A DNA stretch of 64,000 nt, from the IMG/VR virus record IMGVR_UViG_3300044673_000327, positions 21,289 to 85,288 of that record. The stretch is one strand, 5' to 3'. The notes beneath the pieces were generated by a model. It was given only the letters and a program-made list of their open reading frames with translations, made no database searches and was not told the DNA's origin. Position numbers and translations under genes: made by a program. Shown here one piece after another: positions 18,391 to 57,000 of this stretch. Position 1 is the stretch's first letter, and every line of letters begins with the position of its first letter. The stretch is from a virus.

Positions 18391-18417
18391 GATAGCTACG
18401 CTATAGAGAGAGTGAAT
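18391..18417 (+). promoter_or_regulatory. class 2 motif
   Basis: GATAGCTACGCT-N10-TGAAT. Confidence 0.75.
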
Positions 18418-27895: not shown

Positions 27896-28594
27896 CTAGG
27901 GATTCCAGAAGTCGGGATAATCGCCCTCGGTGTAATCGTCCTTGGGGTATTCCTCGGGATTATTCTTGGGAATCGCCGAATTAAAACCCTGTAATGTATT
28001 CGCGGACGGTTCGTAGTATTCCTTGCCGGCGGGAGTTCCATCACTCCACGAGTAAGAGGCGATCGGCTCGGGTTCTTTGGGAGTCTCGGGAGCGGGCGCG
28101 GGAGTAGACTTCGGGGCTTTGAGAGAACGGATTTCTTTTTGAAGTTCGGCGATCATCTCGGCGAGGTGATTACCCTCTAGAGGTTTCTCGATCGCTTTAG
28201 GTACGAGATCGGGATAGTCGGGTTCTCGATCGGGGGAATCAAATATCCGACGACCGGTCATCGGATCGAACGGGGGAAATTTTAATAACTCTCGATCTTT
28301 ATTGATAGGGGAAGCGATCGCCTTACTCTTTCTGGTAACGCTAGGTTGACCGGGTTTACGGCGACGCTTGGGTTTGGTCTCGGGTTCGGGGGAGGGGAAA
28401 GGAATTAGCCTTCCGTCCGCGCTCTCGATGGGAGTAAAAGGTTGTCGGAGGTTAGCGATCGCTTTGGATAGGGACTCGATCGCCCGGGCGGAGTGGTACA
28501 TATCCTCGAACGTATCGAGGTAGGGAAGTTCGGTGACGAGGTTAGCGATAGTCAACCGGAGGGTTTTATCGAGATCGACGGGGAAAGAGGTCAC
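27896..28594 (-). CDS. hypothetical Pro-rich protein
   Basis: 232 aa; class 3 motif at 28624-28633. Confidence 0.7.
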   Translation of the reverse strand: MTSFPVDLDKTLRLTIANLVTELPYLDTFEDMYHSARAIESLSKAIANLRQPFTPIESADGRLIPFPSPEPETKPKRRRKPGQPSVTRKSKAIASPINKDRELLKFPPFDPMTGRRIFDSPDREPDYPDLVPKAIEKPLEGNHLAEMIAELQKEIRSLKAPKSTPAPAPETPKEPEPIASYSWSDGTPAGKEYYEPSANTLQGFNSAIPKNNPEEYPKDDYTEGDYPDFWNP

Positions 28595-28814
28595 GATCGT
28601 TCGGGGTTTCGGGAACGATCGCTAGTCTTCCTATGTTCGAGTCGATTAAAAGGAATTTTCCGGTAGGGTTTTATCGGAAATTGTCTGGAGTTCTGGAGGG
28701 GGGGAAAGAGATCGCTATCTCCGGAGCGGGAGGCGATCGCCTAAAAGGTTATCGGTGGGATTCGATCGCCGTCGGGGAGATCGCCGGGGGATGGGTGAGA
28801 GACGATCCCTTTTT

Positions 28815-28847
28815 TAGGTAAGCCCTTCGGGTTATTCGAGGATGTAA
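28815..28847 (+). promoter_or_regulatory. class 1 motif TAGGTWAGCCCTTCGGG-N11-TGTAA
   Basis: exact 17-mer core, 10 copies in window. Confidence 0.8.
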
Positions 28848-28863
28848 TCATTCAGGAAATTTT

Positions 28864-29076
28864 ATGACCACTTATGAATACCCGAGAGGGTATCAGATCA
28901 CCCATCACGATAACGGTCAACGATCGATCTCGGTCGTTGACGAGAATGGAAACACGCTATTAGACGCGAGCCTTCCCGCTCGCGACGAATTCGATCGAGA
29001 GTTCACCCGAGACTTCATTCTTTTCTTTTCGGGGATGGTAAGTCCTGAAATATTCGACTTTCACTTCCCCTTTTAA
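28864..29076 (+). CDS. hypothetical protein (cassette gene)
   Basis: 70 aa between class 1 motif and terminator. Confidence 0.7.
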   Translation: MTTYEYPRGYQITHHDNGQRSISVVDENGNTLLDASLPARDEFDREFTRDFILFFSGMVSPEIFDFHFPF

Positions 29077-29081
29077 TTTAT

Positions 29082-29118
29082 TCCCCTCTTCGGAGGGGAT
29101 TTCTTTTTGTCACGGGCT
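29082..29118 (+). terminator. hairpin + T-tract + CACGGGCT cassette end
   Basis: TCCCCTC-TTCG-GAGGGGA, T-tract, CACGGGCT. Confidence 0.8.
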
Positions 29119-29189
29119 GAGGGATGGGTGAGTATCGATCGCCTTCCTTTCATAGCGATCGCCTATCGGTGGGAGACCACGACTCTTTT

Positions 29190-29222
29190 TAGGTAAGCCC
29201 TTCGGGGAGATGGTCGGTGAAT
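29190..29222 (+). promoter_or_regulatory. class 1 motif
   Basis: TAGGTAAGCCCTTCGGG-N11-TGAAT. Confidence 0.8.
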
Positions 29223-29250
29223 ATTCAGCCTTTAAGGAGGCACTTCTATC

Positions 29251-29862
29251 ATGACTACCGTAACCAGCACCACCGTTTCCGCTTCCGTTGCCGTTTCCGT
29301 AGCTCAGTCGTATCCGTATATGACTTTCTACGCGAACGGGAAACGCGCGCGCGTGCAGTTATTCATCGGGTTCGATTGTGGACGTGAACGCGCGGAAGCG
29401 ATCGTGAACTCGATCGTTGCCAAGTATCCCACCGCTTCTTTAGCGAAGTGGGAGGACGGTAGCAAGGTCTTCACCGAACGCTACTGGTGCAATACCCAGA
29501 AGCGTCTCGTGCGTAGCGATCGCAAGGGATTCGTCTTGAATATCCCGATGGGCGACATGGTTGTTCCCTCGGAATCCAAGCCCGGTTTCCGCAAGCTCGA
29601 CGTGTTGCGCGCTTGGGTTAATGCGACCCAGAAGCCCCGCCTTGTCGGGCAACTGGAAGCGAATCTCGCCACGTCAGCGTCGGGTTCGGGCGCGGAAGTG
29701 GACGTGACCGCGGGAACTCAACCCCCCGCGAGCGATCGCCGTTCCGAGTTAGAGGCTATGGCATGGTCTGACCTTCTGAAACTCGCCCAATCGCTCAATA
29801 AGCCTAAGTCTCTCAAGAAGAAAGCTGAACTCGTAGCCTTCATCCTAGAGAACGAATTCTAA
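29251..29862 (+). CDS. protein with C-terminal Rho-N/HEH-like domain
   Basis: ELEAMAWSDLLKLAQSL..KKKAELVAFI; AGGAGG SD. Confidence 0.7.
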   Translation: MTTVTSTTVSASVAVSVAQSYPYMTFYANGKRARVQLFIGFDCGRERAEAIVNSIVAKYPTASLAKWEDGSKVFTERYWCNTQKRLVRSDRKGFVLNIPMGDMVVPSESKPGFRKLDVLRAWVNATQKPRLVGQLEANLATSASGSGAEVDVTAGTQPPASDRRSELEAMAWSDLLKLAQSLNKPKSLKKKAELVAFILENEF

Positions 29863-29879
29863 TCTCTTTCCTCTCTTCT

Positions 29880-29922
29880 CCTTCCTCCTCTTCCGGGGGA
29901 AGGTTTCTTTTTGCCACGGGCT
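29880..29922 (+). terminator. hairpin + T-tract + CCACGGGCT cassette end
   Basis: CCTTCC..GGAAGG stem, TTTCTTTTT, GCCACGGGCT. Confidence 0.75.
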
Positions 29923-29977
29923 GAGAGTACGGGAAGGGAATATGCCGCGTCCTCCCGTCACGAACCATGACTCTTTT

Positions 29978-30010
29978 TAGGTAAGCCCTTCGGGTTATTC
30001 GAGGGTGTAA
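29978..30010 (+). promoter_or_regulatory. class 1 motif
   Basis: TAGGTAAGCCCTTCGGG-N11-TGTAA. Confidence 0.8.
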
Positions 30011-30033
30011 CTTACCACTAAGGTACTTCTATC

Positions 30034-30213
30034 ATGACTACCAAATCTGTTCGTCGCATCATCTTAACCGCTCATGTCGTTGGTTATAAACCAGTGACCA
30101 CCACGGCTAAGAACGATAAAGAAGTTCAACTCAGAATCGTACAATCCCTCGAACATTTCTCGAAACTCGGTGTTCAATCCGATAAAGTAGAAATTCAACG
30201 CGCTTATCTATAA
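30034..30213 (+). CDS. small hypothetical protein (59 aa, cassette gene)
   Basis: MTTKSVRRIILTAHVVGYKP...; not in ORF track; fills the cassette. Confidence 0.7.
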   Translation: MTTKSVRRIILTAHVVGYKPVTTTAKNDKEVQLRIVQSLEHFSKLGVQSDKVEIQRAYL

Positions 30214-30224
30214 TCCATCTCCCT

Positions 30225-30270
30225 ATCCTTCCCTCATCTCGGGGGAAGGATTTCTTTTTTACCACGGGCT
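30225..30270 (+). terminator. hairpin + T-tract + CCACGGGCT cassette end
   Basis: ATCCTTCCC..GGGAAGGAT, T-tract, CCACGGGCT. Confidence 0.8.
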
Positions 30271-30357
30271 TTCGTTTTATTCCTATTACTAACACCTCAT
30301 CCCTGTAGTATGTCGCGTTAGAATATAAGGGTAGTATTTGTATTCCTTGAAAGATAC

Positions 30358-30933
30358 ATGGACGTTACGATTAAGCTGATTACTAGCGTTTCTCAACGGG
30401 ACAGTTTACAGGCGATCGCCGATCGCTACCGAGCCGCGAGGGAATGGTTGGACGAGACGGCAGATCCGAGGCTTATCAGTTACTCGGGGATCTACCAACT
30501 CTATTACGGGGAGTTACGGGAACGTTTCGGATTAGGAGCGCACCAATCCCAACAGGTCTGTCAGGAGGTTTCGATCGCGAGGGGGGTGGCTCGAAAGAAC
30601 GATGGGGTCGTAACTTTCGAGCGGGATTCGTTCACCCTACATAGCGGGGGTTTTAGCGTCTTCGTGGGGAAGTCGTCCAAACAGAACCTATCCCTCAGTA
30701 TAACCGGGCTATCGGGGCGGGAGTATTACGCCCTCAAGTCGGGAGTCCGTTACTACAGTGTCTTCGTCAAGAAGGGAACGATCGCCAAGAAAGCGCGGGT
30801 GTTCCTCGGCGATGACGGTATCTGGCGAGTGACCGTGACCCTCGCCGATCGTCCCGCGGGGAAAGAGCCGAATCACAAGGAGGCGATCCGAACCTTTAAC
30901 GCGGATTGCGTGAGTCGGAAGATCGGGATCTAG
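30358..30933 (+). CDS. TnpB-like N-terminal fragment lacking RuvC/Zn ribbon
   Basis: TIKL..Q..L....RY..A..W, YQLYYGELRERFGLGAHQSQQV resemble the IS200/IS605 TnpB N-terminus; stops before any GIDxG. Confidence 0.6.
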   Translation: MDVTIKLITSVSQRDSLQAIADRYRAAREWLDETADPRLISYSGIYQLYYGELRERFGLGAHQSQQVCQEVSIARGVARKNDGVVTFERDSFTLHSGGFSVFVGKSSKQNLSLSITGLSGREYYALKSGVRYYSVFVKKGTIAKKARVFLGDDGIWRVTVTLADRPAGKEPNHKEAIRTFNADCVSRKIGI

Positions 30934-31595
30934 TACATCGGGGGTGGAAAGTTTTTCTTCACCCCCGTTCTCGATCGCGCGACGACCTTTCCTAACCGCG
31001 CGACAGGCTGTTGAAATAGTTAGAATCACCAAAATTTTTTTCTCATGCAGAGCGGGGTTTCCACGAAATCGCTAGATATATTATTAGATATTTTTTAAAT
31101 TCTTCTTTCTTCTCCCGAACACCTGTACTGTACGAGGAACTTAGTACGATCGGGGGAGGGGAAAGGGAGAGGAGAGGAAGGAATGAGTTTTTATTTTCTT
31201 TTTCAGTCGTGGGATGGATAGACCCCCGAGTGTTAGCGAGGGGATGGGGGTGATGGAGAGATGGTAGACGGGAGCGAACGCTATCCCCCTCCCGCGGGAC
31301 GGAGAGACTAGGGCGAGGTTTAAATCCCCTCTAGTAGGCTTCGGGATAGTCGGCTATCTCTTTACCCCACTCGTGGGATTCAAGACCTTTAAGCGAGGTT
31401 TATAACCCACTAGAGAGGGCTAAGGACTAGGATTATCCTCTCGTGTTAACCCAAGTCTTTTCGAGGGGAAGAGATCGCCCGCCCCGTGTAGTATGTTTGT
31501 AGTTCACTTATCAAGAGCGTTGACGTTCCCCGATCGCCCCGTTATTAAACATCGCAACTATGCTACGTCCTCTATAGTTGCTGTTAGAATTAAAG

Positions 31596-31622
31596 GATAG
31601 CTACGCTATATAGGGTATGAGT
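31596..31622 (+). promoter_or_regulatory. class 2 motif
   Basis: GATAGCTACGCT-N10-TGAGT upstream of ssb. Confidence 0.75.
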
Positions 31623-31738
31623 TAATTCGTTGGGGTAATTAACTCTATCTTCTTCTTTCATAGAGCTTTCGGTATTAGTAGATCGTTCTAGGAAGGGAAA
31701 GATATTTCCGAACTTGTCGTCTACCCCCGACTCTTTTT

Positions 31739-31771
31739 TAGGTAAGCCCTTCGGGGTAATAGTAATTGTAA
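31739..31771 (+). promoter_or_regulatory. class 1 motif
   Basis: TAGGTAAGCCCTTCGGG-N11-TGTAA. Confidence 0.8.
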
Positions 31772-31796
31772 TCAACTCAACTTGAGGTTTAATTCT

Positions 31797-32285
31797 ATGC
31801 GTAGCATGAACGTCCATATCATCTCGGGCAACATCGGCGGATATATCACCAAAGTTCGCAACGAACAAGGTGAACTCGAACGTAAGTTCTTCGACCGTCC
31901 AGTGATGAGCAAGACTTCTTCTGGCAAGAAGCTTATCATCCTGACCGTCGCCGTGACCGTCGGTGTCAAGAAAGGTGACGAGTGGACGAACGAAACCCTC
32001 TGGAAGGAATTCCGCTTCTGGGATAACGATGCCTCTTTCCTCGCGGAGTATTCCGCTCAGGGAAATTTCATCGAGATCCAGTACGAGGAAATCCCGAACG
32101 TTTGGATGGACGAGAACGGCAAGAAACGCTACGGCGATCCCGATCTCCGCGTCGTCCGGTTCGTTCTTCCTAAGATGAATCGTTCTGCCAAACCCTCGAA
32201 CGGTGACGATGACTTCGAGGCGATGACCGTCCCGACCGAGGCTCCCGAACTAACTGCCGAAGAGTTAGCCGACATCCCCATGTAA
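31797..32285 (+). CDS. ssb: single-stranded DNA-binding protein
   Basis: MNVHIISGNIG, VAV, TLWxxFRFW OB-fold pattern; acidic tail ELADIPM. Confidence 0.8.
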   Translation: MRSMNVHIISGNIGGYITKVRNEQGELERKFFDRPVMSKTSSGKKLIILTVAVTVGVKKGDEWTNETLWKEFRFWDNDASFLAEYSAQGNFIEIQYEEIPNVWMDENGKKRYGDPDLRVVRFVLPKMNRSAKPSNGDDDFEAMTVPTEAPELTAEELADIPM

Positions 32286-32311
32286 TCCCGATTTCAATCT
32301 CCTAATCCGGC

Positions 32312-32359
32312 TCCCTAGTCCTCTTCGGAAGACTAGGGATTTTCTTCTTTCCACGGGCT
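32312..32359 (+). terminator. hairpin + T-tract + CCACGGGCT cassette end
   Basis: TCCCTAGTC..GACTAGGGA, T-tract, CCACGGGCT. Confidence 0.8.
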
Positions 32360-32387
32360 TTCCCCCAACTCTCAACAGGTTATCCCC

Positions 32388-32654
32388 ATGAGCTACGAAT
32401 ACCAGTACGACACCGATCGCTATCCCGTTCCCGCCTATCCCGAGAACGAACACCTGGACGAACCGACCCTCACTCCCTACGACAAGGGGCTATTCGACGG
32501 AGTGACCTATAACCTTTCCGAGGAATTGATCCGGCACATCGACGATGCCGATTACGTTCGGGGATACCTCGATGGAGTGCGGGAGGCGATCGCTTCCAAG
32601 AGATACCTTCTCTCCCTACAGGGGAAGGTTAAACCCCATCCCGATAGCTTCTGA
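32388..32654 (+). CDS. hypothetical protein
   Basis: 88 aa; YDKGLFDG / YVRGYLDG repeat. Confidence 0.65.
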   Translation: MSYEYQYDTDRYPVPAYPENEHLDEPTLTPYDKGLFDGVTYNLSEELIRHIDDADYVRGYLDGVREAIASKRYLLSLQGKVKPHPDSF

Positions 32655-32818
32655 ACGCGGTACGCTACGCTCGAACTACAATTCGGGGAAGTAGGATTGA
32701 CCCGGTTCTCTCCGTTCCCCGTCAATCCCCCGCGTACCCTCTAGAATATTTTCGGGGTAGCCTTTTCCATCCCCCCGAATATCTCTTTTCCCTACACGCG
32801 CGGGTATTATATCTCTAT

Positions 32819-32852
32819 TAGGTTAGCCCTTCGGGGCGTTCGGCAGTTGTAA
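32819..32852 (+). promoter_or_regulatory. class 1 motif
   Basis: TAGGTTAGCCCTTCGGG-N12-TGTAA. Confidence 0.8.
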
Positions 32853-32870
32853 TTCCACTTGAGGTTTATT

Positions 32871-33074
32871 ATGCGATTAATAACGATTGTCGGTGATGCG
32901 GTTCCCCGTGGCGGGACATATCACGCGGTAGCCGTGTACGAAACTTCTGCGGGTCGTCGTACCAAGACCGTAACTATTCCGGGATTTACCGGAACCTATC
33001 GAGGGTTTTGGGATCGACAACCTTTCGATGAAGTATTGAACATCGACGAAGTTCCTAGTTGGCTATTGAAATAA
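32871..33074 (+). CDS. hypothetical protein (cassette gene)
   Basis: ATG at 32871 with GAGG SD; cassette end variant GTCGCGGGCT at 33124-33133. Confidence 0.7.
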   Translation: MRLITIVGDAVPRGGTYHAVAVYETSAGRRTKTVTIPGFTGTYRGFWDRQPFDEVLNIDEVPSWLLK

Positions 33075-33132
33075 TTCTTTTATCTCTTTCCTTCTCTCAT
33101 CTCGGGGGAAGGATTTCTTTTTTGTCGCGGGC

Positions 33133-34743
33133 TTAATTCCTCGCGTGGAATTCCTCCATCGCAGTCTCCAGTCTCCGACGTACACCCAATCCCTTGAAGG
33201 CGAGGGCGAGGGAATCCACACAATCGTTATAGGCAACGGAACCGAATTGGGTTAGCTCGTTAATCCACGGACTCCAATCGATATACCGATTGAAGTAGAC
33301 TAACCCGTTGTGGAATAGACCCGTCATGCCGAGAAGATGACTCAGCTTATCGCCCCCGAGTTTGATGCCGTACACCTGCATCGAGTACAGTCCCTTCTCG
33401 TTGTGGATGTATTGAGTGAAGTCCATGACAAGGGATGCCTGATACGCCACGTCCTCGATGTAAACACGCCACGGGGTAACGCCATCGTCCCATTCCTCGT
33501 ATAGTTCCAATATCACCTCGCACTTATCGAGGTTGGATACCCACTTCCCGCGTCTACCATCGAGAACGTAGAAATGATCGCCTCTTTTCCCGAGTAGGGT
33601 GATGACGGTATAACAGGCTTTTTCTTTCTCCGATACGGCGAGATCGATACCGATAGCGAAGGAATCGAACGCGGTTCCGAGGGGGATGTCTTTGTAGAGA
33701 ATCCACGAGGGATCGATGCTCATCCCCTCGACTCGAACGACAACGTTCTGGTACTGGAACGAGAAGCCGAAGGGGTCTTCCCTCTGGAGTGTCTTGAGCT
33801 TTTCTGTCGGCCACCAATCGGGCCAGTAGGAAACGAGATTCCCCGAACCGTCATCGATAAGCGCCGATTGCTCGATAACCTTCCAGCCCTTTTCGGTCGT
33901 AAAGTCGGTGCAGTATATGTCATCGGGACGCATCCGAGTCCCTACACAGATCATCCGACCCCCATCGAGTAGGGTCGGTTTGATAACCGAATGGAACTTG
34001 GTTTGAATCTTCTCTCTCGTCTTGAGACTGGCGATGTCATCGGGAGATTTGATGATGTCGTCGAAGATAATAAGATGAGTACGCTTACCGACAATGGAAC
34101 CGGTGATACCCGTCGCGAGCATCGTGTAATCCTCGCCCCCCGTGTTATCGATTCCCGCCCACTTGCGATCGATCGTCCAGTAAGTATCGCTCCATTTATT
34201 CCCCTTGCGAATACAGGGAAAGACTTTCCGGTATTCTTCCCCGGTGAGGGTGTCTTTGATGATACCGCTTCTAGCTAGAGCGATCGCTTGAGAGGCGGAA
34301 GCGTAAAGAATCTGTAAGGCGATACCTTCGAGGGCGTGAGTACCGATCGCCCATGCCACGAACATATCGATGCGGGTACTCTTCGCCGAACCGCGAGGGC
34401 TGAGGATCAGGATATTATCCCCAGCTATCCCTCGAAGGTGTCGGCTATCGTTGCCCGTGACGAGGTGTTCGTCCCATCTCTTGTGATGCTCCGCCCCCGC
34501 GAGAGATTTATCGGGGGGTAGATTACGGGTGACATACCAACAGAAGTAATCGAAGTCTTTCCTCGCCCGAAGAATCTCCTCGTCGTCGGTATGCCATCGA
34601 TTCTCTTTTGCGATCGCCCCCTGCCGTTCTAGTTCTCTCTCCTCGGCGCGGGCGATCTCTATATCCACGAGAGCGCGACGGTATCGGTTCTTCTTGCCCG
34701 TACCGCTCGACCTGTTCCCCCTCGTTCCCGTCCTCGATGCCAC
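33133..34743 (-). CDS. terL: terminase large subunit
   Basis: SPRGSAKST Walker A, LIIFDD Walker B, GTR, IGIDLA, NDCVDS nuclease motifs. Confidence 0.95.
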   Translation of the reverse strand: MASRTGTRGNRSSGTGKKNRYRRALVDIEIARAEERELERQGAIAKENRWHTDDEEILRARKDFDYFCWYVTRNLPPDKSLAGAEHHKRWDEHLVTGNDSRHLRGIAGDNILILSPRGSAKSTRIDMFVAWAIGTHALEGIALQILYASASQAIALARSGIIKDTLTGEEYRKVFPCIRKGNKWSDTYWTIDRKWAGIDNTGGEDYTMLATGITGSIVGKRTHLIIFDDIIKSPDDIASLKTREKIQTKFHSVIKPTLLDGGRMICVGTRMRPDDIYCTDFTTEKGWKVIEQSALIDDGSGNLVSYWPDWWPTEKLKTLQREDPFGFSFQYQNVVVRVEGMSIDPSWILYKDIPLGTAFDSFAIGIDLAVSEKEKACYTVITLLGKRGDHFYVLDGRRGKWVSNLDKCEVILELYEEWDDGVTPWRVYIEDVAYQASLVMDFTQYIHNEKGLYSMQVYGIKLGGDKLSHLLGMTGLFHNGLVYFNRYIDWSPWINELTQFGSVAYNDCVDSLALAFKGLGVRRRLETAMEEFHARN

Positions 34744-35119
34744 TAAAGATCGCCCCCGTCTCTACACGGGTCTTATCTTTCCTACATCGGGGGACTCGGG
34801 GTACAATCTAACGAATTCAGGTTTCATGATAGAAGGCTCGGGTGTTCCATCTCTTCAGCGCGAGCGAAGCGCTGGCGTAGCCAGTTCGCCCCACCTTTTT
34901 CCTATTCCGATCGCGTACAATGAAGAAGTACACCGAGACGGTCGGTAAATTGTACTAGGTTCGGAGAGGGGGCGATCGTGGATCACCCCCTCTCTTTATG
35001 GTTGGATTATTTGTTTTTAGAATCACCATTCTGCACACCGAATAATATTCCTGATAGTAATCCTTTTGAATCGGGAAAGACGATCGCTAATCCCTTCTTT
35101 CGAGTATCGAGTCTTTTTT

Positions 35120-35152
35120 TAGGTTAGCCCTTCGGGTTGATCTGTAATGTAA
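35120..35152 (+). promoter_or_regulatory. class 1 motif
   Basis: TAGGTTAGCCCTTCGGG-N11-TGTAA. Confidence 0.8.
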
Positions 35153-35202
35153 ACCACCCCACTCTCTTCACGGGGTATTTTCAACCAAAGGATTAATCGA
35201 TC

Positions 35203-35523
35203 ATGAATACTTTCCATCACATCATTGACCTCTGCATTATTCTCTCCGCTTTATCTTTAACCCTTCTCTCCTTTCTTCCTCTCCTCTTTAAAGGGATTAT
35301 CTGCCTCCAGAAGTTCCCGAGCAAAGTCCGTCAATGCCGAGCCGACAAACGACAAGCTCTCTACCGTCAAGCTGTTGCTCGTGAGTTCGATGCGTTGATG
35401 AAACATCCCTATCACGATCTCAAGAAGTACGTTCGACATCTCGCCCTACCGACCGACGATATGAAGAAGCCTACGATAGCGTGGGCGATCGCTAACTATC
35501 ACGTTCAGAGTTACGGTCTCTAG
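35203..35523 (+). CDS. membrane-anchored protein with Rho-N/HEH-like C-terminus (cassette gene)
   Basis: N-terminal TM; LMKHPYHDLKKYVRHL..MKKPTIAWAI; cassette end CCACGGGCT at 35562-35570. Confidence 0.6.
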   Translation: MNTFHHIIDLCIILSALSLTLLSFLPLLFKGIICLQKFPSKVRQCRADKRQALYRQAVAREFDALMKHPYHDLKKYVRHLALPTDDMKKPTIAWAIANYHVQSYGL

Positions 35524-35660
35524 TCTCTTCCCCCCCTCCCATCGGAGGGGATTGTCTTTTCCCACGGGCTTTCGATAGAATCCCCGGTTAGTCTCGCACT
35601 AACATCTCGACCTTTGACGGACTGCTTTAACTTTAAGCTACGGGGAGCGTGACTATTCTA

Positions 35661-36254
35661 TCACCCTTCCTTCGCCTCGATCAAGATCGTCTCGATCGCT
35701 TTCTCTAAAGCCTCCTCGAAAGAACTCCCCTTGAAGATCTCCCGTAACCCATCCGCCATGCGCATCATCCCCGCTTTCTCGAACTCCTCTTTCTCTTGAA
35801 GATTGCCGATGCGGATGAAGGTATCGATCGCCTTGACCGCGCTGTTACGGAGGTGCGGGAGAACCTGTAGGAACTTCTCGTCGGGGATGGAATCCTGCCC
35901 GGCTTTCACTCTCATGGTCGCCATGTCCAGATCCTCTACCGTATCCACGATCAACTTCTGTATCGTGCCGATAGGATCGAATCCCCGATAGTCCGCTAAC
36001 TTCTCGTTGAGGGCTAAAGCTCTGGCTCCCGCGGTCTTATATCTCTCGTACCAATTACTCACCCCGTCGATCGATACCTTGAACTCGGGACTGAGATCGA
36101 GAAGGTATCTCTGGATGTCCGATAGTCGCGGGTTAGGACGGTTGGCGATCGCCAGTAATCCCGCGTCCTGATCGGGAGTTAGCATCTCGCGGAACCTATC
36201 GATCTTTGTCGGGGGAGATTTACGGGGTTTGAGTATCGGTTTAGCGTCAGCCAT
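35661..36254 (-). CDS. putative terminase small subunit (Mu gp27/DUF3486-like)
   Basis: helical 197 aa with HTH-like N-terminus, upstream of terL on same strand. Confidence 0.5.
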   Translation of the reverse strand: MADAKPILKPRKSPPTKIDRFREMLTPDQDAGLLAIANRPNPRLSDIQRYLLDLSPEFKVSIDGVSNWYERYKTAGARALALNEKLADYRGFDPIGTIQKLIVDTVEDLDMATMRVKAGQDSIPDEKFLQVLPHLRNSAVKAIDTFIRIGNLQEKEEFEKAGMMRMADGLREIFKGSSFEEALEKAIETILIEAKEG

Positions 36255-36585
36255 AATAGAGGAGAGGAAGGAATGAATGAATGAATTAATTTATTTTTCC
36301 GTTCTTAATCGGGGTAATTAAGACGGGGGATTAGTATTCCTTTCTTTCTAGGTTTCGTTATAAGCCGAGGTGACAGATGGTATATAAAATCGTTTGGCAA
36401 AGCAAGATAACCGGCTATCGATCGGAGGGAAGTCCGAGTGATAATTTGACAGAGCTTGAGGTGTTGACAAATAGAATGAATAAAGAATATCCAGATATAG
36501 ATCACTGGATACTCCCCGTCGATGAGTCAAATCAAAAAGGGGATTAGTATTCCTTTCTTTCTCTCTCTCCGTATCGAATCCTTTT

Positions 36586-36618
36586 TAGGTTAGCCCTTCG
36601 GGTTATAAGTAGGTGTAG
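36586..36618 (+). promoter_or_regulatory. class 1 motif
   Basis: TAGGTTAGCCCTTCGGG-N11-TGTAG. Confidence 0.8.
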
Positions 36619-36635
36619 TTAATCGAGATTGAATT

Positions 36636-36818
36636 ATGTATATCGCTTTTCAATGCGCCGGTGAAGAACTCTACTGGAAGTCGGGTGGTAAGCGCGAGCC
36701 ATTGGTTCTGACTCTTGAAAAAGAGAAAGCCACTCGAATTACGTTGGGTGTGTTTCCTAAAAACTGGTGGTATCGAATGAATGACAAAGTTCAAGATCTG
36801 GATTTTCAGATCGTTTAA
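36636..36818 (+). CDS. small hypothetical protein (cassette gene)
   Basis: 60 aa after class 1 motif. Confidence 0.65.
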   Translation: MYIAFQCAGEELYWKSGGKREPLVLTLEKEKATRITLGVFPKNWWYRMNDKVQDLDFQIV

Positions 36819-36830
36819 TTGGAGGAGTTT

Positions 36831-36980
36831 ATGTATATCAGAATCAAAGACTATCTTCCCGATGCGAACATCTCTCCCGAAGTTCAAGTACGGGTCGATG
36901 ATAACTTCAACCCGAAAGATAAATACACTCTAGACTGGCTAGAGTATTTGGTCTTACTCTGGAACTCAAGAGAAAAATAA
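36831..36980 (+). CDS. small hypothetical protein (49 aa, cassette gene)
   Basis: GGAGGAG SD; MYIRIKDYLPDAN...; cassette end CCACGGGCT at 37040-37048. Confidence 0.65.
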   Translation: MYIRIKDYLPDANISPEVQVRVDDNFNPKDKYTLDWLEYLVLLWNSREK

Positions 36981-37052
36981 TTAATTCATTCCTCTCCTTC
37001 CTCTCCTTCCTCTCTTATCGAGGGGAAGGATTCTTTTTTCCACGGGCTTTAT

Positions 37053-37793
37053 CTATACCCCTCTCCACAACTTACGGGATTCGGCGCGGTTGACATTATC
37101 GAGTCGGATCTGTTGACCGATTCTATTACTCTCGATCTCCATCGTCTGATCGGCCGCTTGACGTTGTAGTCTCTCGCGGTTTTGGGCTTGCGTTCCCTCG
37201 AACCGGACATTCTGATCGCCCTGCGCCCCGATCTGGGCGATGTTATACCCCGATTGCTCTCTCGCCAATCGGGATCTATTCTCGGTATCGACACCCATCC
37301 TCTGGATCTGATTGGTATTATCGACGTTCATACGTTGGATCTGATTGCCGTTATCGACGTTCATCCTCTGGATAGTCTGGTCGCTACCCTCGCGTTGGAT
37401 GCGGGATGTACTCTCGGTATTCGCCCCGATCTCCCCGAGTCGGTACTGATTGGCGAGTCCCATTAATTCCCTCTGGTTCGCCTGTTGTTGGGTGATGAGG
37501 GCAGAATAATCGGAAGAACCCGAACCCGTCGATGAACCGGAAGAATCGGGATTGAAAGATGGATTAGAACCACCACCTCCCGAACCTCCCCCGTTACGGA
37601 GGGCGTTTAATCGTTGGTTTAATTCCTCTTCGGCTATCTGTTCCTGTAGTTTCTTCTGGCGGATCTGGCTATCGTTGAGCATCGAGGCGCCACCTCTTCC
37701 GTAACTAGCCTGTCCCCCCCCGCCCCCAGAACCGAACGGACCGTAAGATTTACCCGGCCCACCTATCTCGATCGGACTCCAACTGATACTCAT
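37053..37793 (-). CDS. putative DNA ejection/pilot protein with 11-residue repeats
   Basis: IQRMNVDNxNQ-like unit x3; G/S/Q-rich. Confidence 0.55.
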   Translation of the reverse strand: MSISWSPIEIGGPGKSYGPFGSGGGGGQASYGRGGASMLNDSQIRQKKLQEQIAEEELNQRLNALRNGGGSGGGGSNPSFNPDSSGSSTGSGSSDYSALITQQQANQRELMGLANQYRLGEIGANTESTSRIQREGSDQTIQRMNVDNGNQIQRMNVDNTNQIQRMGVDTENRSRLAREQSGYNIAQIGAQGDQNVRFEGTQAQNRERLQRQAADQTMEIESNRIGQQIRLDNVNRAESRKLWRGV

Positions 37794-47826: not shown

Positions 47827-48230
47827 ACAAATACACGCTCTACTGGAAAGCGGGGAAGAAGGAAACGATAGAGGGGAACGATCTACGTGACGCTCTCGAA
47901 CGGGCGGGATACCCCGAAACGGTACTCGTATCGATAAGTCATGTATCTTTGGACGAGAACGATTACTGGTGGGATTCGGAACGGAAATGTTGGTCGCTTA
48001 ATAATCCCGAGTCTAAACCCCCGATCGATCTCAAAACGATCAAGCGGGTCGAGTACGTGTACGAAGAAATCCGTCGGTATAAGTTTATTACCGAGGTTCC
48101 TTTCTCGATGGAGACCGAAGAGATGGAAGATCATTTCGAGAACCTATTCGCCAACAATAAAGAGTTGTTTAAGAGCGCGGAGTTTATCGAATCCTCTACC
48201 CAACTCGATAATTTCTCGGTATTCGATTAA
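47823..48230 (+). CDS. hypothetical protein
   Basis: 135 aa, translationally coupled. Confidence 0.65.
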   Translation: MNKYTLYWKAGKKETIEGNDLRDALERAGYPETVLVSISHVSLDENDYWWDSERKCWSLNNPESKPPIDLKTIKRVEYVYEEIRRYKFITEVPFSMETEEMEDHFENLFANNKELFKSAEFIESSTQLDNFSVFD

Positions 48231-48284
48231 TCTCGGGAGGGGGAACGGTTTCTTTTTACCCTCTCGTGGGTATCATGACCCCGT

Positions 48285-48449
48285 TGGGTTAGCCCTTCGG
48301 GGTGTGATTTTATTTCTCTCTCTTTCAGTCCCCCCGTTTGTTGGCGTAGATTATTCGCGAATGAAGGAAGGAAAGAATTTATTTTTTTCTTCTTATCGGT
48401 GGGTGGCGTAACTTTTTTAGGTTAGCCCTTCGGGGGGTATAGGAATAAT
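48285..48449 (+). promoter_or_regulatory. two class 1 cores (48285-48301 variant, 48418-48434) plus class 3-like TAGGAATAAT (48440-48449)
   Basis: read directly upstream of ORF 48469. Confidence 0.65.
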
Positions 48450-48468
48450 TGAAGATAAAGAGGTGATT

Positions 48469-50136
48469 ATGAATCGTATCGCTAATTTAATCCCGAGGGG
48501 GGCGAATGTTTATTCGAGAAATCCGGTCGCCGCGGTTTTAACCAACCCGACGGAACTCGCCCGATCGCTCGGCACGATCTCCCATCCGTACCCTCTGTAT
48601 AGTACGGATGGGCGTTTATTTCTCGATGTGGATACGGCTTATATCGATACTCTCAAACCCCGTTTCACTCAACCTTACGACGATCGTATGGTGAACGGGA
48701 TGGCGAGATTGAACGCCGCCAAGTTTCGGAGTAACCCCGAGTTATTAGAAATGGTTGAAGCTTCGGCGGGACAAGCTGGATTAGACCCGGAATCCTTTTT
48801 GCGATCGCTCCGGCACGAGGTAGTCGGCAACAAGTTCTGGGAAACCCCATCCCGTAAAGCTCCCGATGGAATGTCGGGGGCGATCGAGGCTTTAGCGAGA
48901 GGGTACGGTATGGCGAGACAAAACCCCGATTTATCCCTGCCATCCGGCAAGGTCATCTCGGTTCATCTTCCTCAGCCCCAGCATCCCGTGAATCGGGCGA
49001 AACAGAAACCGCTCGGTGTAGACGAAGGTGTAGCCGATTGGATAGCGAATCGTGACCCCGAGGGTTTGATTTTATTCGGGGATAACTATATCGGTAAGGG
49101 GAAAGCGGGTCAGGCGATTATCCGGGATAAGGATATAGCCGTAGGGATACCGACCAAGAAACTCCCCGCGATGAGTCCCGATTCCTTTCTCTACGATGAA
49201 GATCTCGACGAGTATATCCGACGGGTCAGCCCGACAATCGAGCGCTTACAACAGCATCTCGATCGCGGGGGGAGATTGTACTTCCTCTCCACCGGTATCG
49301 GTACGGGGTTAGCCGTAGCCCGTAACGGACGCTCTCAGAAACGGGTAGGGGATTGGTTGGCTAACCGTCTATACGAACTCGGAGTACCCGAATCGATTAT
49401 CGGTAATCCCCTCGGTGGTTCACTATCCCGTCAGCCCGTCGTCGCGAGTCACGTCGTGTCTTTCGCTAGTCCCAAGATGGAGAGTAATTCCGTGAATAGA
49501 ACGGCTAATATTAGCATCCCCGAATGGAATCCCGAACCCTATTTATCGGGGGGTAAGGTGCTGATGGGAACGGGTCATCGTCCCGACAAACTGGGAGGCT
49601 ACGATATTTATCCCTCGACCCTTAACAAGCTCACCGATCTGGCGGGCAATTATCTAGAAGAACTCGAACCCGATCGGGTGGTATCGGGCATGGCTCAGGG
49701 ATGGGATAGCGCGTTGGCGATCGCCGCTATCCGTAAGGGTATCCCGTTGACCGCGGCTGTCGCTTTCGATGGGGTCGAGAAACGTTGGACTCCCGACGCT
49801 CAACGATTATTCCACCGTATTCTCGACAAGTCCGATAACGTGCGGGTTGTCGGTAATACGGGAAGCGGTCGGAGCGCGGGGCAACTACTTAACGATCGCA
49901 ATCTCTGGATGATCGATAACTCTTCCGGGGTTCTCGCCCTCTGGAACGGGACATCGGGGGGAACGGCTAATGCGGTTCGAGACGCTATCGGTCGCGATAA
50001 GCCTATCCTCAATCTCTGGGATGAGTGGCGGGGAAAACCTACCCCGATCGTCGCTAATCCGATCGCTCCCACTCCTACCGATTCCCGTCCCGGTTTCGGT
50101 AACTGGCAAGTCACCTATTACGGGAAACCGAAATAG
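48469..50136 (+). CDS. multidomain protein: Macro-like domain plus YspA/DUF1273-type SLOG domain
   Basis: ILFGDN..GKGKAGQA..AVGIPTK..GIGTGLA (Macro-like); GTGHRP, SGMAQGWD, RNLWMID, GGTANAV (SLOG). Confidence 0.75.
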   Translation: MNRIANLIPRGANVYSRNPVAAVLTNPTELARSLGTISHPYPLYSTDGRLFLDVDTAYIDTLKPRFTQPYDDRMVNGMARLNAAKFRSNPELLEMVEASAGQAGLDPESFLRSLRHEVVGNKFWETPSRKAPDGMSGAIEALARGYGMARQNPDLSLPSGKVISVHLPQPQHPVNRAKQKPLGVDEGVADWIANRDPEGLILFGDNYIGKGKAGQAIIRDKDIAVGIPTKKLPAMSPDSFLYDEDLDEYIRRVSPTIERLQQHLDRGGRLYFLSTGIGTGLAVARNGRSQKRVGDWLANRLYELGVPESIIGNPLGGSLSRQPVVASHVVSFASPKMESNSVNRTANISIPEWNPEPYLSGGKVLMGTGHRPDKLGGYDIYPSTLNKLTDLAGNYLEELEPDRVVSGMAQGWDSALAIAAIRKGIPLTAAVAFDGVEKRWTPDAQRLFHRILDKSDNVRVVGNTGSGRSAGQLLNDRNLWMIDNSSGVLALWNGTSGGTANAVRDAIGRDKPILNLWDEWRGKPTPIVANPIAPTPTDSRPGFGNWQVTYYGKPK

Positions 50137-50322
50137 AGAGAAGAGAAAGAGAGAAGGGGATTAATTACTTTTTAAAAGAGGGTAATTAATTCTCTCCGTA
50201 TCCGATCGCCCCTCTATAAATTAATAACCTCTCCTTCATTCCTTCCTTCTCTCTCTAGGGTATAGAGATAGTCGGGAGGAATTGTTGTAGATGGGTTACT
50301 CGTGGTGGTAATTCAATTTCTT

Positions 50323-50355
50323 TAGGTTAGCCCTTCGGGGTATCGGTGGGTGTAA
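50323..50355 (+). promoter_or_regulatory. class 1 motif heading the RNA polymerase operon
   Basis: TAGGTTAGCCCTTCGGG-N11-TGTAA. Confidence 0.8.
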
Positions 50356-50379
50356 TTAATTTATTCAAAGTAGCCAATT

Positions 50380-54050: not shown

Positions 54051-57000
54051 ATGTCCGATCCCCTCACCCGTATTCTCCGCGTCGTTTCCCGCGACGGTAC
54101 TGAAGACATCGTACCGATCGGGGCTTTCGGTATCCCCGATTTTCAAGGGGATCTACCGCCGCTCACCCGTTCGAGTCAGTTAGTCGATTTCGCCCTACCC
54201 CATAATCAGAAGTACGGATCTGGGGAGTGGAGAGTTAACGAGAAGACGGGACAGCCTTATTTCGTCAAGATAGACTACGGGATCGAGGGGGATAAGTTCG
54301 ATCGACTGGTGGCGGGATTAAGAACTCAGACTACCCGTAAAGATAACTTCACCGGTCGGGCGTTAGGCAGGAGCGGGGGTAGGATCGGGAATCCCGATGT
54401 TCGTCCGATGCGGATCGTGACCTACGATAACCCCGATCTTAACGAGGGAACGGGGCAGATATTAGAGGTGACGGGGGTTAGTACCCTCGGGGAGAAGTAC
54501 CCCGCGCTGACCGGCAGGGATTGGAGCGGGGACATCTGGAGCGATCGGGATGGAGATGAACTGAAAGCCTTAAGCGATGAACAGAAAGAACGGGTAAAAC
54601 AACAGGCTACCGATTACGCCAGAGCGGAAGGGGCTGTACGCCCGGATGGAACGGTGGTTGGTCGGTACACGGGGGATACCCTCGGCGATCGCCGTAATTA
54701 CTTCGTCGATGGCGATACCCGCTATTCCAAACCGGGTTACTCCCCCTACTACTCCGACGCGAACGTTATCGATTTCAAGCCCGTGGGGGAACCTTTCCCT
54801 CTCTCGCGATCCCCGCGAAATATTCTCGACAAGATCGCCCTAGAACGGAGAGCGAACGCGGAATCGAAGATCGTTAACCCCGATGGCTCTATCATCCATA
54901 CCTCCCGTCAACCGATCGACGGGGTGGTGACGGATAGCGAGGGCAACGAGATCCTTTACCCCTCTCTCAACGACGCGGGATTAGAGAGTCTCGGGATCTA
55001 TAACAAGACGGGGGGATTCGTCTCTGGAGGGGAACGACAGAACGGTATCAAGTACGAGGGGATCGATATGCCTAAAAATCCCCTCAAGTTCGTGATACCG
55101 GGTGACGAGGATAATTATAACGCGGCGTTGAATTACCCGATGGACGGACAACCGGGGCGGAATATCGTACCGGTACGGGTCGGGGGATTACGGTATCAAC
55201 TCGGGTTGGCGGACAATAAACCCGATACGAATCAGTTCTCCGAGTTGGTCAAGCGGTACGCGGGGGGAGATTTCGATCCTCAAGACCTACCCGATTTCAT
55301 TCTGAACGCTCCCCCCGGCTCCATCCCGACCGACGGACGGGGTAAACCTTTCCACGGGGCGAGTAACCCGAGTATGAACAGTCTCGCCTACCGGATAGCG
55401 GAACAGGTAAAACTGAACCGACAGTTACGGGAAGCGAGTCAAGCCTTCAGCGAGAGTACCCTATTCCCCCGTAACCAACTGGAGACGCTGGACGGGACGG
55501 TAGCGGAGATCGATCGTACCCAGAAAGCTTATCTCTCCAGTAGTAAGAACCCCGTCGATCTATTACAGGGACACGCCAAGTTTTATCTTCAAGACGAGAA
55601 CACGAAAGATAACTTCGATTACGAACCCGCTATGAGCCACGAGGCGCGGGAGATCTTGAGCGATAACCCCAACTACGGCAAGACGATCACCACGGGCAAT
55701 ATTCCCCTCGTCGATAATCTATACCGTCAGGAGTTGAGGGAATCCAGGCCGAATGGGGGATTGGGGGTAAGAGGATTCGGTTCTGATTCCCGCGGTTTCT
55801 ACGCCGATTATTTCGGAAGGTTCGAGAATAAGAGAGTGGACGAGAACGGGAATCTTATTCGGACATTCGTTCAGAAACCCCTCTTTAAAACCGAGGCGGA
55901 TCGACAGTATGTCGATAGTCGATTAGTTGGAAAACGATTCGAGGACGAGAACTATCAACCGTTCGTGACGTGGGGGATGAAAGATGGCAAGCGAGTGGTG
56001 ATCGATGATGGTTCCCCGATCGGGCCGTATCTCCCCAGAGCTTACGAGCCGAAGGTAAATTCATCGTCCCCCCTAAACCCGATCGATTCGGTTATCACCT
56101 CGCTTCCCTCGGCTAACCTCTGGCTCGATGGGGGGAATCAATACCCCCTCGCGAGAACGGTCAAATGGATTAACGAGTATTGGCGACCGAATAATCCGAA
56201 AGCGGCGGGACTCGATCTCTCCAGAATGACCGAACCCGAGAAGTTCGAGTTAGATCGCGCCCTCGGACTCGTGACCGATGAACCGTTACCGATCGAACTG
56301 GCTTCCCTCTCAGATCCGAGAGCGGTAGCGGAAGGTGGGGTATCGAGCAGACCCCTGACCGATGAAGAGATTCGGGGACGGGGCGAGGGAAGAGAGAGCG
56401 ATCGGGTTTACGAGTGGAGTGCCAAAGCACCTGAATCCCAACTCGAACAGGTTTTCTTAGACTCGATGGATAACCCTCGAACCGGTGGGGTTCGACTCGG
56501 GGAAGTTCTCGGGTTGCCTTTTGTTAACCCCTCCACCCGAAAGGATGGAGTGAAATACTCTCTCTCTTCTATTATCGGGGGGGGTGATTCTTCTCCTAAT
56601 ACGACGGGAAATTTGGAAGATACTTTATCGCTCAAGGGAACCGGCTACAACCCCGAGAATCAAGACCTCTCGATCTTCGATCTTCCCGATAACGTGTTCG
56701 TTCTCGATTCCCCTCGTGAAACTCCAAAAATCCTGAGTGTTCAGGGGACGAAATCCGATAGCTACGACGGGGCGAGAGTACCGGGTTTTCTCAATCAACT
56801 ACGGGGTATGAGACAAGATCCCAAGACGGGACAGATGACCTACTCCGACAGGGCGAATATCGTCGGGGTTAACCCTCCCGAAGAAGTTCCCGCCAACGCC
56901 GACGAGATCGTGCAAGGTATGGGTTACGAGAACTACGCCCATTACCTTAACGAAAATCGATTCCTACACCCGAACCAGAATAAAGCGAAGGTGAAAGTCG

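Follow-up and report, generated by a model that had tools for sequence, protein, structure and literature searches.

A ten-copy box with a candidate DNA mini-hairpin as a putative promoter for a phage two-barrel RNA polymerase

Introduction

How does a minimal phage RNA polymerase find its start without a sigma factor? This question is raised by a box that recurs ten times in a 64,000-nt window of viral DNA (bases 21289-85288 of an 85,288-bp virus record) and that carries the short inverted repeat CCCTTCGGG in every copy. A preliminary description of this DNA proposed that the repeat encodes a C-GAA-G mini-hairpin on the template strand, like the promoters of the N4 virion RNA polymerase. To our knowledge, the hairpin-promoter mechanism has so far been shown only for the N4 polymerase. 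Extruding a cruciform of 9 nt from duplex DNA is costly, and this counts against reading the repeat as a hairpin. If the proposal is true, the N4 mechanism would have arisen a second time, independently and by convergence, in these boxes. They would also provide a short and concrete promoter candidate, made of a hairpin, a fixed spacer, and a TG box, with which the question above can be approached. Two classes of such boxes in one 85-kb phage, together with natural stem variants in related phages, offer material for in vitro work.

Results

The virus record

The sequencing runs from which the record derives are labelled as rhizosphere metagenome. GATC occurs 977 times in the 85 kb, and GCGATCGC, the cyanobacterial HIP1 palindrome, occurs 33 times. 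These counts fit a cyanobacterial host, and the virus is probably a cyanophage. The last 200 bases of the genome (85089-85288) repeat bases 15-214 with one extra G in a G-run, which points to a circular assembly or to terminal redundancy, though the record is classed as linear. The 9-mer AGTATTCCT is found 13 times on the plus strand of the whole genome and not once on the minus strand.

The class 1 box

The 9-mer CCCTTCGGG occurs ten times in the window, each time on the plus strand, and shuffled sequences give an expectation of 1.66. For the 18-nt TTAGGTWAGCCCTTCGGG, there are ten matches in the window compared to 0.09 expected. The complete box, called class 1 here, is laid out as T5-AGGTWAG-CCCTTCGGG-N11/12-TGTAA. 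When the copies are aligned on the 9-mer, with the first C of CCCTTCGGG as the 0 point, the conserved block runs from -14 to +8 (cTTTTT-AGGTWAG-CCCTTCGGG) and a conserved T stands at +20. Directly 5' of this block, GAnTC is often found. The 17 positions of TTAGGTWAGCCCTTCGGG besides the W are all invariant in nine of the ten copies. Outside the hairpin, 14 bases of the box are invariant or nearly so, which shows that the base sequence itself is also read. The downstream element, TGTAA or a one-base variant of it, begins 11-12 nt past the GGG in eight copies. The spacer that precedes it is free in sequence, except that copies 1 and 3 are nearly alike.

The 21 kb of the genome outside the window contain no additional class 1 copy, and a search of IMG/VR with the exact class 1 18-mer returned two single matches only. 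Contigs from two DNA runs contain identical class 1 fragments without variants. One contig, from run X1, covers exactly 28812-30003, from the first to the third class 1 box. Contig ends at the boxes are an artefact of the assembler, which breaks at repeats, and not biology.

Gene context of the class 1 copies

All ten copies are on the plus strand. The first (28809-28848) has the T-tract, AGGTAAG, CCCTTCGGG at 28823-28831, an N11 spacer, and TGTAA at 28843-28847, and is followed by an ORF at 28864-29076. The second (29184-29223; hairpin 29198-29206) has TGAAT as its downstream element and precedes an ORF at 29251-29862, while the third (29972-30011; hairpin 29986-29994) precedes one at 30034-30213. 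The fourth (31733-31772; hairpin 31747-31755) lies directly 5' of ssb. N12 separates the hairpin from TGTAA in the fifth copy (32813-32853; hairpin 32827-32835), after which comes an ORF at 32859-33074. The sixth (35114-35153; hairpin 35128-35136) is followed by an ORF at 35203-35523, and the seventh (36580-36619; hairpin 36594-36602), with TGTAG as its downstream element, by an ORF at 36636-36818. The next copy (48279-48318; hairpin 48293-48301) is degenerate. It reads TTGGGT, has neither T-tract nor TGTAA, and lies within an ORF (47941-48411), 133 nt 5' of an intact copy; it looks decayed and is probably non-functional. TAATT replaces TGTAA in that neighboring ninth copy (48412-48451; hairpin 48426-48434), which stands 5' of a 557-aa DUF7831/DprA-like ORF (48463-50136). 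The tenth copy (50317-50356; hairpin 50331-50339) is 5' of a 92-aa ORF, which is followed by an RNA polymerase gene.

Nine of the ten boxes are thus placed 23-66 nt upstream of the start codons of plus-strand ORFs. For copy 2, the distance is 44 nt to the start of a 203-aa ORF, and 10 nt to that of a shorter overlapping frame. The ssb gene (31782-32285, plus strand) was assigned by its Pfam SSB score of 31.6 bits (cut-off 26) and by PHROG 44. It is preceded by a box of a second class at 31599 and by the class 1 box at 31747, and it starts 26 nt after the latter. The phage ssb gene is, therefore, in a class 1 cassette, just as the preliminary description had it. SSB may have a link to the class 1 boxes, for which the position of its gene is the sole basis.

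Seven class 1 units between 28.8 and 37.0 kb contain small genes and have strong terminator-like hairpins with T-runs at their ends. These units are antisense among minus-strand head and packaging genes, namely those for the portal, the terminase, and the major head protein. An example of a unit-closing hairpin with its T-run is at 29082-29099 on the plus strand, and the unit-end regions of this kind are 29082-29120, 29880-29925, 30225-30270, 33089-33135, 35533-35570, and 37004-37050. The unit-end hairpins are long and GC-rich and are followed by a T-run and then by a conserved 8-mer, C(A/G)CGGGCT. They look like ordinary intrinsic terminators plus this extra conserved 8-mer.

A host sigma-70-type promoter has -35 and -10 hexamers spaced 16-18 nt apart, and judged by their sequence the class 1 boxes are not of this kind. 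Of the six consensus matches in 28500-37200, none is at a class 1 box, and their number is no excess over shuffles. Furthermore, TGTAA carries a G at the position of the essential A of the -10 hexamer.

The hairpin in this genome

The reverse complement of CCCTTCGGG is CCCGAAGGG, so the template strand of the downstream plus-strand genes reads C-GAA-G. The preliminary description had stated that this strand reads CCC-GAA-GGG, and C-GAA-G is indeed present in all ten copies. It had also stated that the stem is extended in four copies (AGCCC-TTC-GGGTT). AGCCCTTCGGGTT does stand at 28823, 29986, 35128, and 36594, but the added bases form an A-T with a G.T on the top strand and an A-T with an A.C on the template strand. 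The stem is, therefore, without extension on the very strand for which the hairpin had been proposed. The other six copies have a G after GGG and no stem extension.

The class 1 boxes greatly exceed what chance would give; the 3-bp inverted repeat in them does not. A perfect 3-bp repeat with a loop of 3-4 nt is found in 35% of 23-mers drawn at random from this genome. Folding of the ten template-strand copies with a nearest-neighbor DNA model gave -1.2 to -3.8 kcal/mol, with z from -0.04 to -1.7 compared to shuffles, which is no better than the shuffles. Thermodynamic models of the nearest-neighbor type miss the stability of mini-hairpins, according to a review (PMC13037366). The stem is 3 bp in all ten copies and never varies, so this genome provides no covariation signal. 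A template-strand match to the consensus of mini-hairpin DNA occurs by chance in 1.6% of 23-mers; the match is suggestive, but the comparison was made post hoc. As a class, the consensus words show no genome-wide excess. For this genome by itself, a 3-bp stem proves nothing.

A second class of box in the same genome

In an unbiased count of hairpin words with a 3-bp stem, the top strand-specific words were CCCTTCGGG and AGCTACGCT, with ten copies each, all on the plus strand. The second word belongs to a box, called class 2 here, that reads GGAT-AGCTACGCT (AGC-TAC-GCT), N10, TGA(G/A)T and occurs ten times in the whole genome. The first class 2 hairpin of the window is at 559-567, followed by N10 and TGAAT, and the other window copies are at 18394, 31599, 46212, 58645, and 59874. 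In the first 21 kb of the genome, copies are found at genome coordinates 5519, 10379, 15149, and 21221. The class 2 copies head plus-strand operons, and six of the ten are 35-47 nt upstream of ORF starts. Their stem is usually lengthened to TAGC/GCTA. The distance from loop center to TG is 15-16 nt in both classes. Read from the template strand, class 2 is GCGTAGC and so matches GCGNAGC exactly; the chance of this is 0.7% for a 14-nt box.

The polymerase gene

Downstream of the tenth class 1 box lies the gene for P0001 (50770-53397, plus strand), an 875-aa protein with a DYDGD metal motif. A representative library contains 138 homologues of P0001, of which the closest, P0004-P0009, are 33-37% identical to it. 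A profile built from 32 homologues matches plant RDR2 over several stretches, including the GGDxDGD site. The AlphaFold model of P0001 (pLDDT 89.3, pTM 0.86) matches the structures of QDE-1 and RDR2 at E about 1e-15 and the polymerases of Thermus phages P74-26 and P32 at about 1e-10. Further matches of the model are to gp66 of a crAss-like phage and to gp96 of P23-45. These profile and model matches identify P0001, as predicted from its modelled fold, as a single-subunit two-barrel RNA polymerase of the YonO/QDE-1 kind.

With the family HMM, no second member of the polymerase family was detected in any of the six frames of the genome, which makes P0001 the sole detectable one. The T7-like polymerase domain PF00940 had no match in the genome; the control genomes were silent as well. 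For the enzyme, the likeness to N4 proposed in the preliminary description is not supported: no N4-type virion polymerase was detected, and P0001 is of the two-barrel fold, which is unrelated.

Directly after the polymerase operon is the largest ORF of the genome, which encodes 1521 aa (window 54051-58616) and has no Pfam, PHROG, or Atlas match. Its product is hydrophobic in a segment at the C-terminus and has the string DRDGD near residue 166. As a candidate second polymerase it was rejected, with an hhalign probability of 0.2% compared to the P0001 family. At the equivalent position, a contig of the comparison set (L001, 12565-18468) has an ORF of 1967 aa.

Among proteins of prokaryotic viruses, YonO-like enzymes are most closely related to the eukaryotic RNAi polymerases, for which single-stranded DNA is the preferred template. 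Two enzymes of the same fold as P0001, crAss gp66 and QDE-1, transcribe single-stranded DNA far better than duplex DNA, and both, QDE-1 with RPA, use single-stranded or denatured DNA well and duplex DNA poorly (bioRxiv 10.1101/2020.03.07.982082). A signal in the form of a folded single strand would, therefore, suit a P0001-type enzyme.

Relatives that share the polymerase

About ten contigs in IMG/VR carry a homologous polymerase that is 22-25% identical to P0001. Scans of IMG/VR with single proteins and sub-alignments added no further polymerase-bearing contigs. GenBank phages gave neither a DNA match nor a protein match, and a scan of genome contigs for relatives found none.

The closest relative with DNA is a metagenome contig, L011, whose polymerase is 31% identical to P0001. 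It contains five copies of TGACTWC-GATGCAGGAG-TTWCAC, followed by N11-12, TGTAA, and about 25 nt to an ATG. It shares with class 1 the architecture, the TGTAA, the spacing, and a copy before a small ORF and the polymerase gene. At the position of the hairpin, however, it has GT-TWC-AC only, where T-A closes a stem of 2 bp. Contig L004, which also encodes a homologous polymerase, has six plus-strand copies of TTTCC-GAC-GGAAA (TTTCCGACGGAAA) with a 5-bp stem and a GAC loop, at 1565, 6279, 7482, 11869, 16653, and 20981. GAG-rich sequence follows them, and some are within ORFs. The GAC loop is not of the G..A type on either strand. Four further contigs (L005, L012, L021, and L022) showed no clear repeated promoter-like motif.

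The main comparison was made with five whole records that carry a homologous polymerase, G001-G005, of which G002 is partial. Each of these genomes has 16-31 copies of GGCTAACGCC, nearly all on one strand, and a control pattern gave 0. In 70 of 86 unique sites, GGCTAACGCC is followed by N9-10 and then TGA, and the sites are mostly 26-58 nt upstream of ORF starts on the same strand. The pair that flanks GGCTAACGCC is Watson-Crick in 71 of the 86 unique sites (shuffle mean 39), with A-T in 49, G-C in 9, T-A in 8, and C-G in 5. One position further out, 46 of the 86 sites still have a Watson-Crick pair (shuffle mean 25), and the pairs beyond show nothing. Sites are partly orthologous across these related genomes, so the shuffle tests, here and for the class 1-type boxes below, overstate independence. 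The GGCTAACGCC motif is the counterpart of class 2. The loop TAA coincides with the stop codon of the upstream ORF in 6 of the 16 GGCTAACGCC sites of G003 (L023-L026).

The same records contain a second motif class, which corresponds to class 1. In G003, it is present seven times as AATATTTTTCTTTAAA-CGC-TTC-GCG, N12, TGTAAT, with about 22 nt to an ATG. The other four records have TTTTTATGG (T-tract, ATGG), a stem around GC-TAC-GC, about 12 nt, TGTAGTT, and an ATG, in 14-18 copies each in G001, G004, and G005 and in three copies in the partial G002. The T-tract, a TTC or TAC loop, and TGTA(A/G)T are common to class 1 and the boxes of the relatives, and the stem differs. Its middle pair is swapped on both sides, being CCC/GGG in our genome and CGC/GCG in G003, and in the other records the stem varies. 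Of 41 unique class 1-type sites, 23 have a Watson-Crick pair adjoining the GC/GC core, with four pair types, compared to a shuffle mean of 9.0. The commonest variant, gtcGCTACGCtcc, has an internal mismatch.

This comparison with related phages suggests that the mini-hairpin inside the box is under selection. The idea that the hairpin matters, as put forward in the preliminary description, gains comparative support from the second class of box and from the compensating and co-varying stems of the relatives. The 2-bp, T-A-closed stem of L011 and the GAC loop of L004 count against it.

Discussion

The proposed promoter and its reader

The class 1 box is likely to be a promoter, given its sequence, its strand, and its position before genes, and the ten boxes are most likely promoters for the phage's own unusual RNA polymerase. 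Our best explanation, to which we give a probability of about 0.5, is a two-part promoter specific to the phage, read by its own polymerase and containing a functional DNA mini-hairpin. The upstream part would consist of the T-tract, AGGTWAG, and CCCTTCGGG, and the downstream part would be TGTAA, which lies 11-12 nt further on and probably near the transcript start. Each unit would comprise one or a few short plus-strand genes, usually with an intrinsic terminator at the end. The reader of the box would most likely be P0001 or a partner and not the host sigma-70 enzyme. Local unwinding would allow CCCTTCGGG to fold into a mini-hairpin, with the template strand (CC-GAA-GG, of the stable C-GNA-G type) favored. 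The polymerase would then recognize both this fold and specific bases, and the 11-12 nt to TGTAA would be the ruler that fixes the start downstream. Both classes have the C-GNA-G core and the TG in common. A single polymerase may read them, at different strength or timing or with the aid of different helpers. Since the polymerase gene is itself behind a class 1 box, either another activity would read class 1 first or the gene would first be reached by read-through.

The loops bear on which strand could fold. The template-strand readings are CCGAAGG for class 1, GCGTAGC for class 2, and GCGAAGC and GCGTTAGC for the relatives. All four fit the published mini-hairpin consensus GCGNAGC/GCGNNAGC, and the chance of such a match, given above for boxes of 23 and 14 nt, is 0.5% for boxes of 12 nt. 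As coding-strand DNA or as RNA, no class but class 1 yields a stable loop of known type (cUUCGg, in the six copies that have a fourth G). It is, therefore, only on grounds of loop chemistry that the template strand is favored. An excess of G.T over A.C on the top strand of the relatives was considered as evidence for the folding strand and rejected, because the G of the 5' arm is nearly fixed.

That the hairpin functions as DNA is plausible. Its action on the template strand through N4-like extrusion, with any help from supercoiling or SSB, is possible, and we put this forward tentatively. With similar reserve, we suggest that a template C-GNA-G mini-hairpin at a fixed distance from a TG box could be the native promoter code of an entire family of YonO/QDE-1-like phage polymerases. 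Each phage would have two classes of this promoter, and its polymerase would bind the hairpin once this is extruded or melted, perhaps together with the phage SSB.

Alternative explanations

The box could also be a promoter that is read purely as duplex sequence, like those of the T7 type, in which case the 3-bp repeat would have no structural role. We consider this rather unlikely. Base-specific reading does predict what is seen in class 1, where the positions of TTAGGTWAGCCCTTCGGG are invariant in nine of ten copies and the N11 is free. The stem is invariant here, it folds no better than shuffles, a third of random 23-mers have such a repeat, and L011 keeps the architecture with a 2-bp repeat only. 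However, duplex reading needs a repeated coincidence, in which both classes here and both in the relatives happen to have a complementary stem equidistant from TG. It also has to accept as chance the compensating swap of the middle pair relative to G003, the co-variation of the flanking pairs, and the fact that every loop is T..C on the coding strand. If transcripts instead start upstream of the box or read through it, the hairpin, CCC-UUC-GGG or, in the six copies with a fourth G, C-UUCG-G, could act in RNA to stabilize the 5' end, to guide processing, or to signal antitermination. In RNA, these six copies allow a tetraloop of the cUUCGg type on a 3-bp stem, and the AG..TT extension is legal, as G.U and A-U. 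Many hairpins of the relatives are between genes of the same strand, some with the stop codon TAA as their loop, and so they are transcribed by read-through. An RNA role is nevertheless improbable, since UAC and UAAC are not known as stable RNA loops, whereas all classes fit the G..A type of DNA loop on the template strand. In the relatives, the class 1-type hairpin often comes directly after a terminator hairpin and T-run, and nothing conserved, such as a promoter, is found further upstream. The most likely start of its own transcript is, therefore, on the downstream side of the hairpin. The fixed N10-12 to TG and the short distance to the start codon fit such a start as well, and no Rfam family matched in the window.

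Another possible explanation is that the dyad reflects a protein. The box would then be the site of a phage protein, such as an activator or a recombinase that moves the cassettes, or it would be used by the host polymerase with a phage factor. The units do resemble self-contained cassettes, with conserved left and right ends and an antisense position among head and packaging genes, and a long invariant box suits a dedicated DNA-binding protein. Half-sites of 3 bp that are 3 bp apart are too small for a typical dimer, however, and two classes in one genome would require two proteins. The variable and co-varying stems of the relatives fit pairing and not a fixed half-site, and the design travels with the polymerase gene across distant phages. 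We regard a protein site as improbable, to about the same degree as a role in RNA. An integron-like recombination site was ranked low because the design precedes many genes in the relatives.

Comparison with known systems

The ops hairpin read by RfaH resembles the proposed promoter in being a very small DNA hairpin in the single-stranded bubble of a two-barrel polymerase that is read by a protein. It differs in that it is not a promoter but a signal of the elongation phase, formed by the non-template strand and acting by way of a separate factor, RfaH (PMC5995543).

The mini-hairpin DNA of Hirao and co-workers, GCGNAGC/GCGNNAGC, shares with all motifs described here two G-C pairs and a G..A loop. 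According to the review, CC-GG stems and a GTTA loop are acceptable, and such hairpins are found at phage replication and transcription origins. In contrast to our sequence, which is inside a duplex genome, the data on mini-hairpins come from free oligonucleotides, and the Tm of the CC-GG stem (65 C) was obtained with a GAAA loop, not with the GAA of class 1 (PMC13037366). If the fold is recognized by the polymerase, this would explain why mini-hairpin sequences recur at transcription origins.

SPbeta YonO (PMC5467207) and gp64/gp96 of Thermus phage P23-45 (PMC10770324) are polymerases of the same broad fold class as P0001. In P23-45, conserved motifs are just upstream of mapped starts, and there are two promoter classes, one of which drives the polymerase gene (PMC10770324). 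The promoter sequence of YonO is undefined and was left open by the 2017 YonO paper (PMC5467207). A full-text literature search on YonO hairpin promoters found no paper that describes the design of a hairpin plus a box.

The early promoters P1-P3 of coliphage N4, for which extrusion and dependence on SSB and gyrase have been shown, resemble the class 1 box in design. Like class 1, they combine a small inverted repeat, whose 3-nt loop on the template strand is of the G-N-A type and is closed by a C-G pair, with conserved stem bases, a set distance to the start region (putative in class 1), and a polymerase encoded by the phage. SSB helps in N4, and is a possible link only in our phage. The differences concern the stem, which is 5-7 bp in N4 and 3 bp in class 1, and the enzyme, which in N4 is a T7-like right-hand polymerase packed in the virion and here has the two-barrel fold (PMC4496689). 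In addition, N4 has three promoters at one genome end, compared to ten class 1 and ten class 2 boxes across our genome, and the loop center is 11 nt from the start in N4, whereas the conserved TG of class 1 is 16 nt from the loop center. Membership in the N4 family is not supported; in its design, the class 1 box would work like the N4 promoters.
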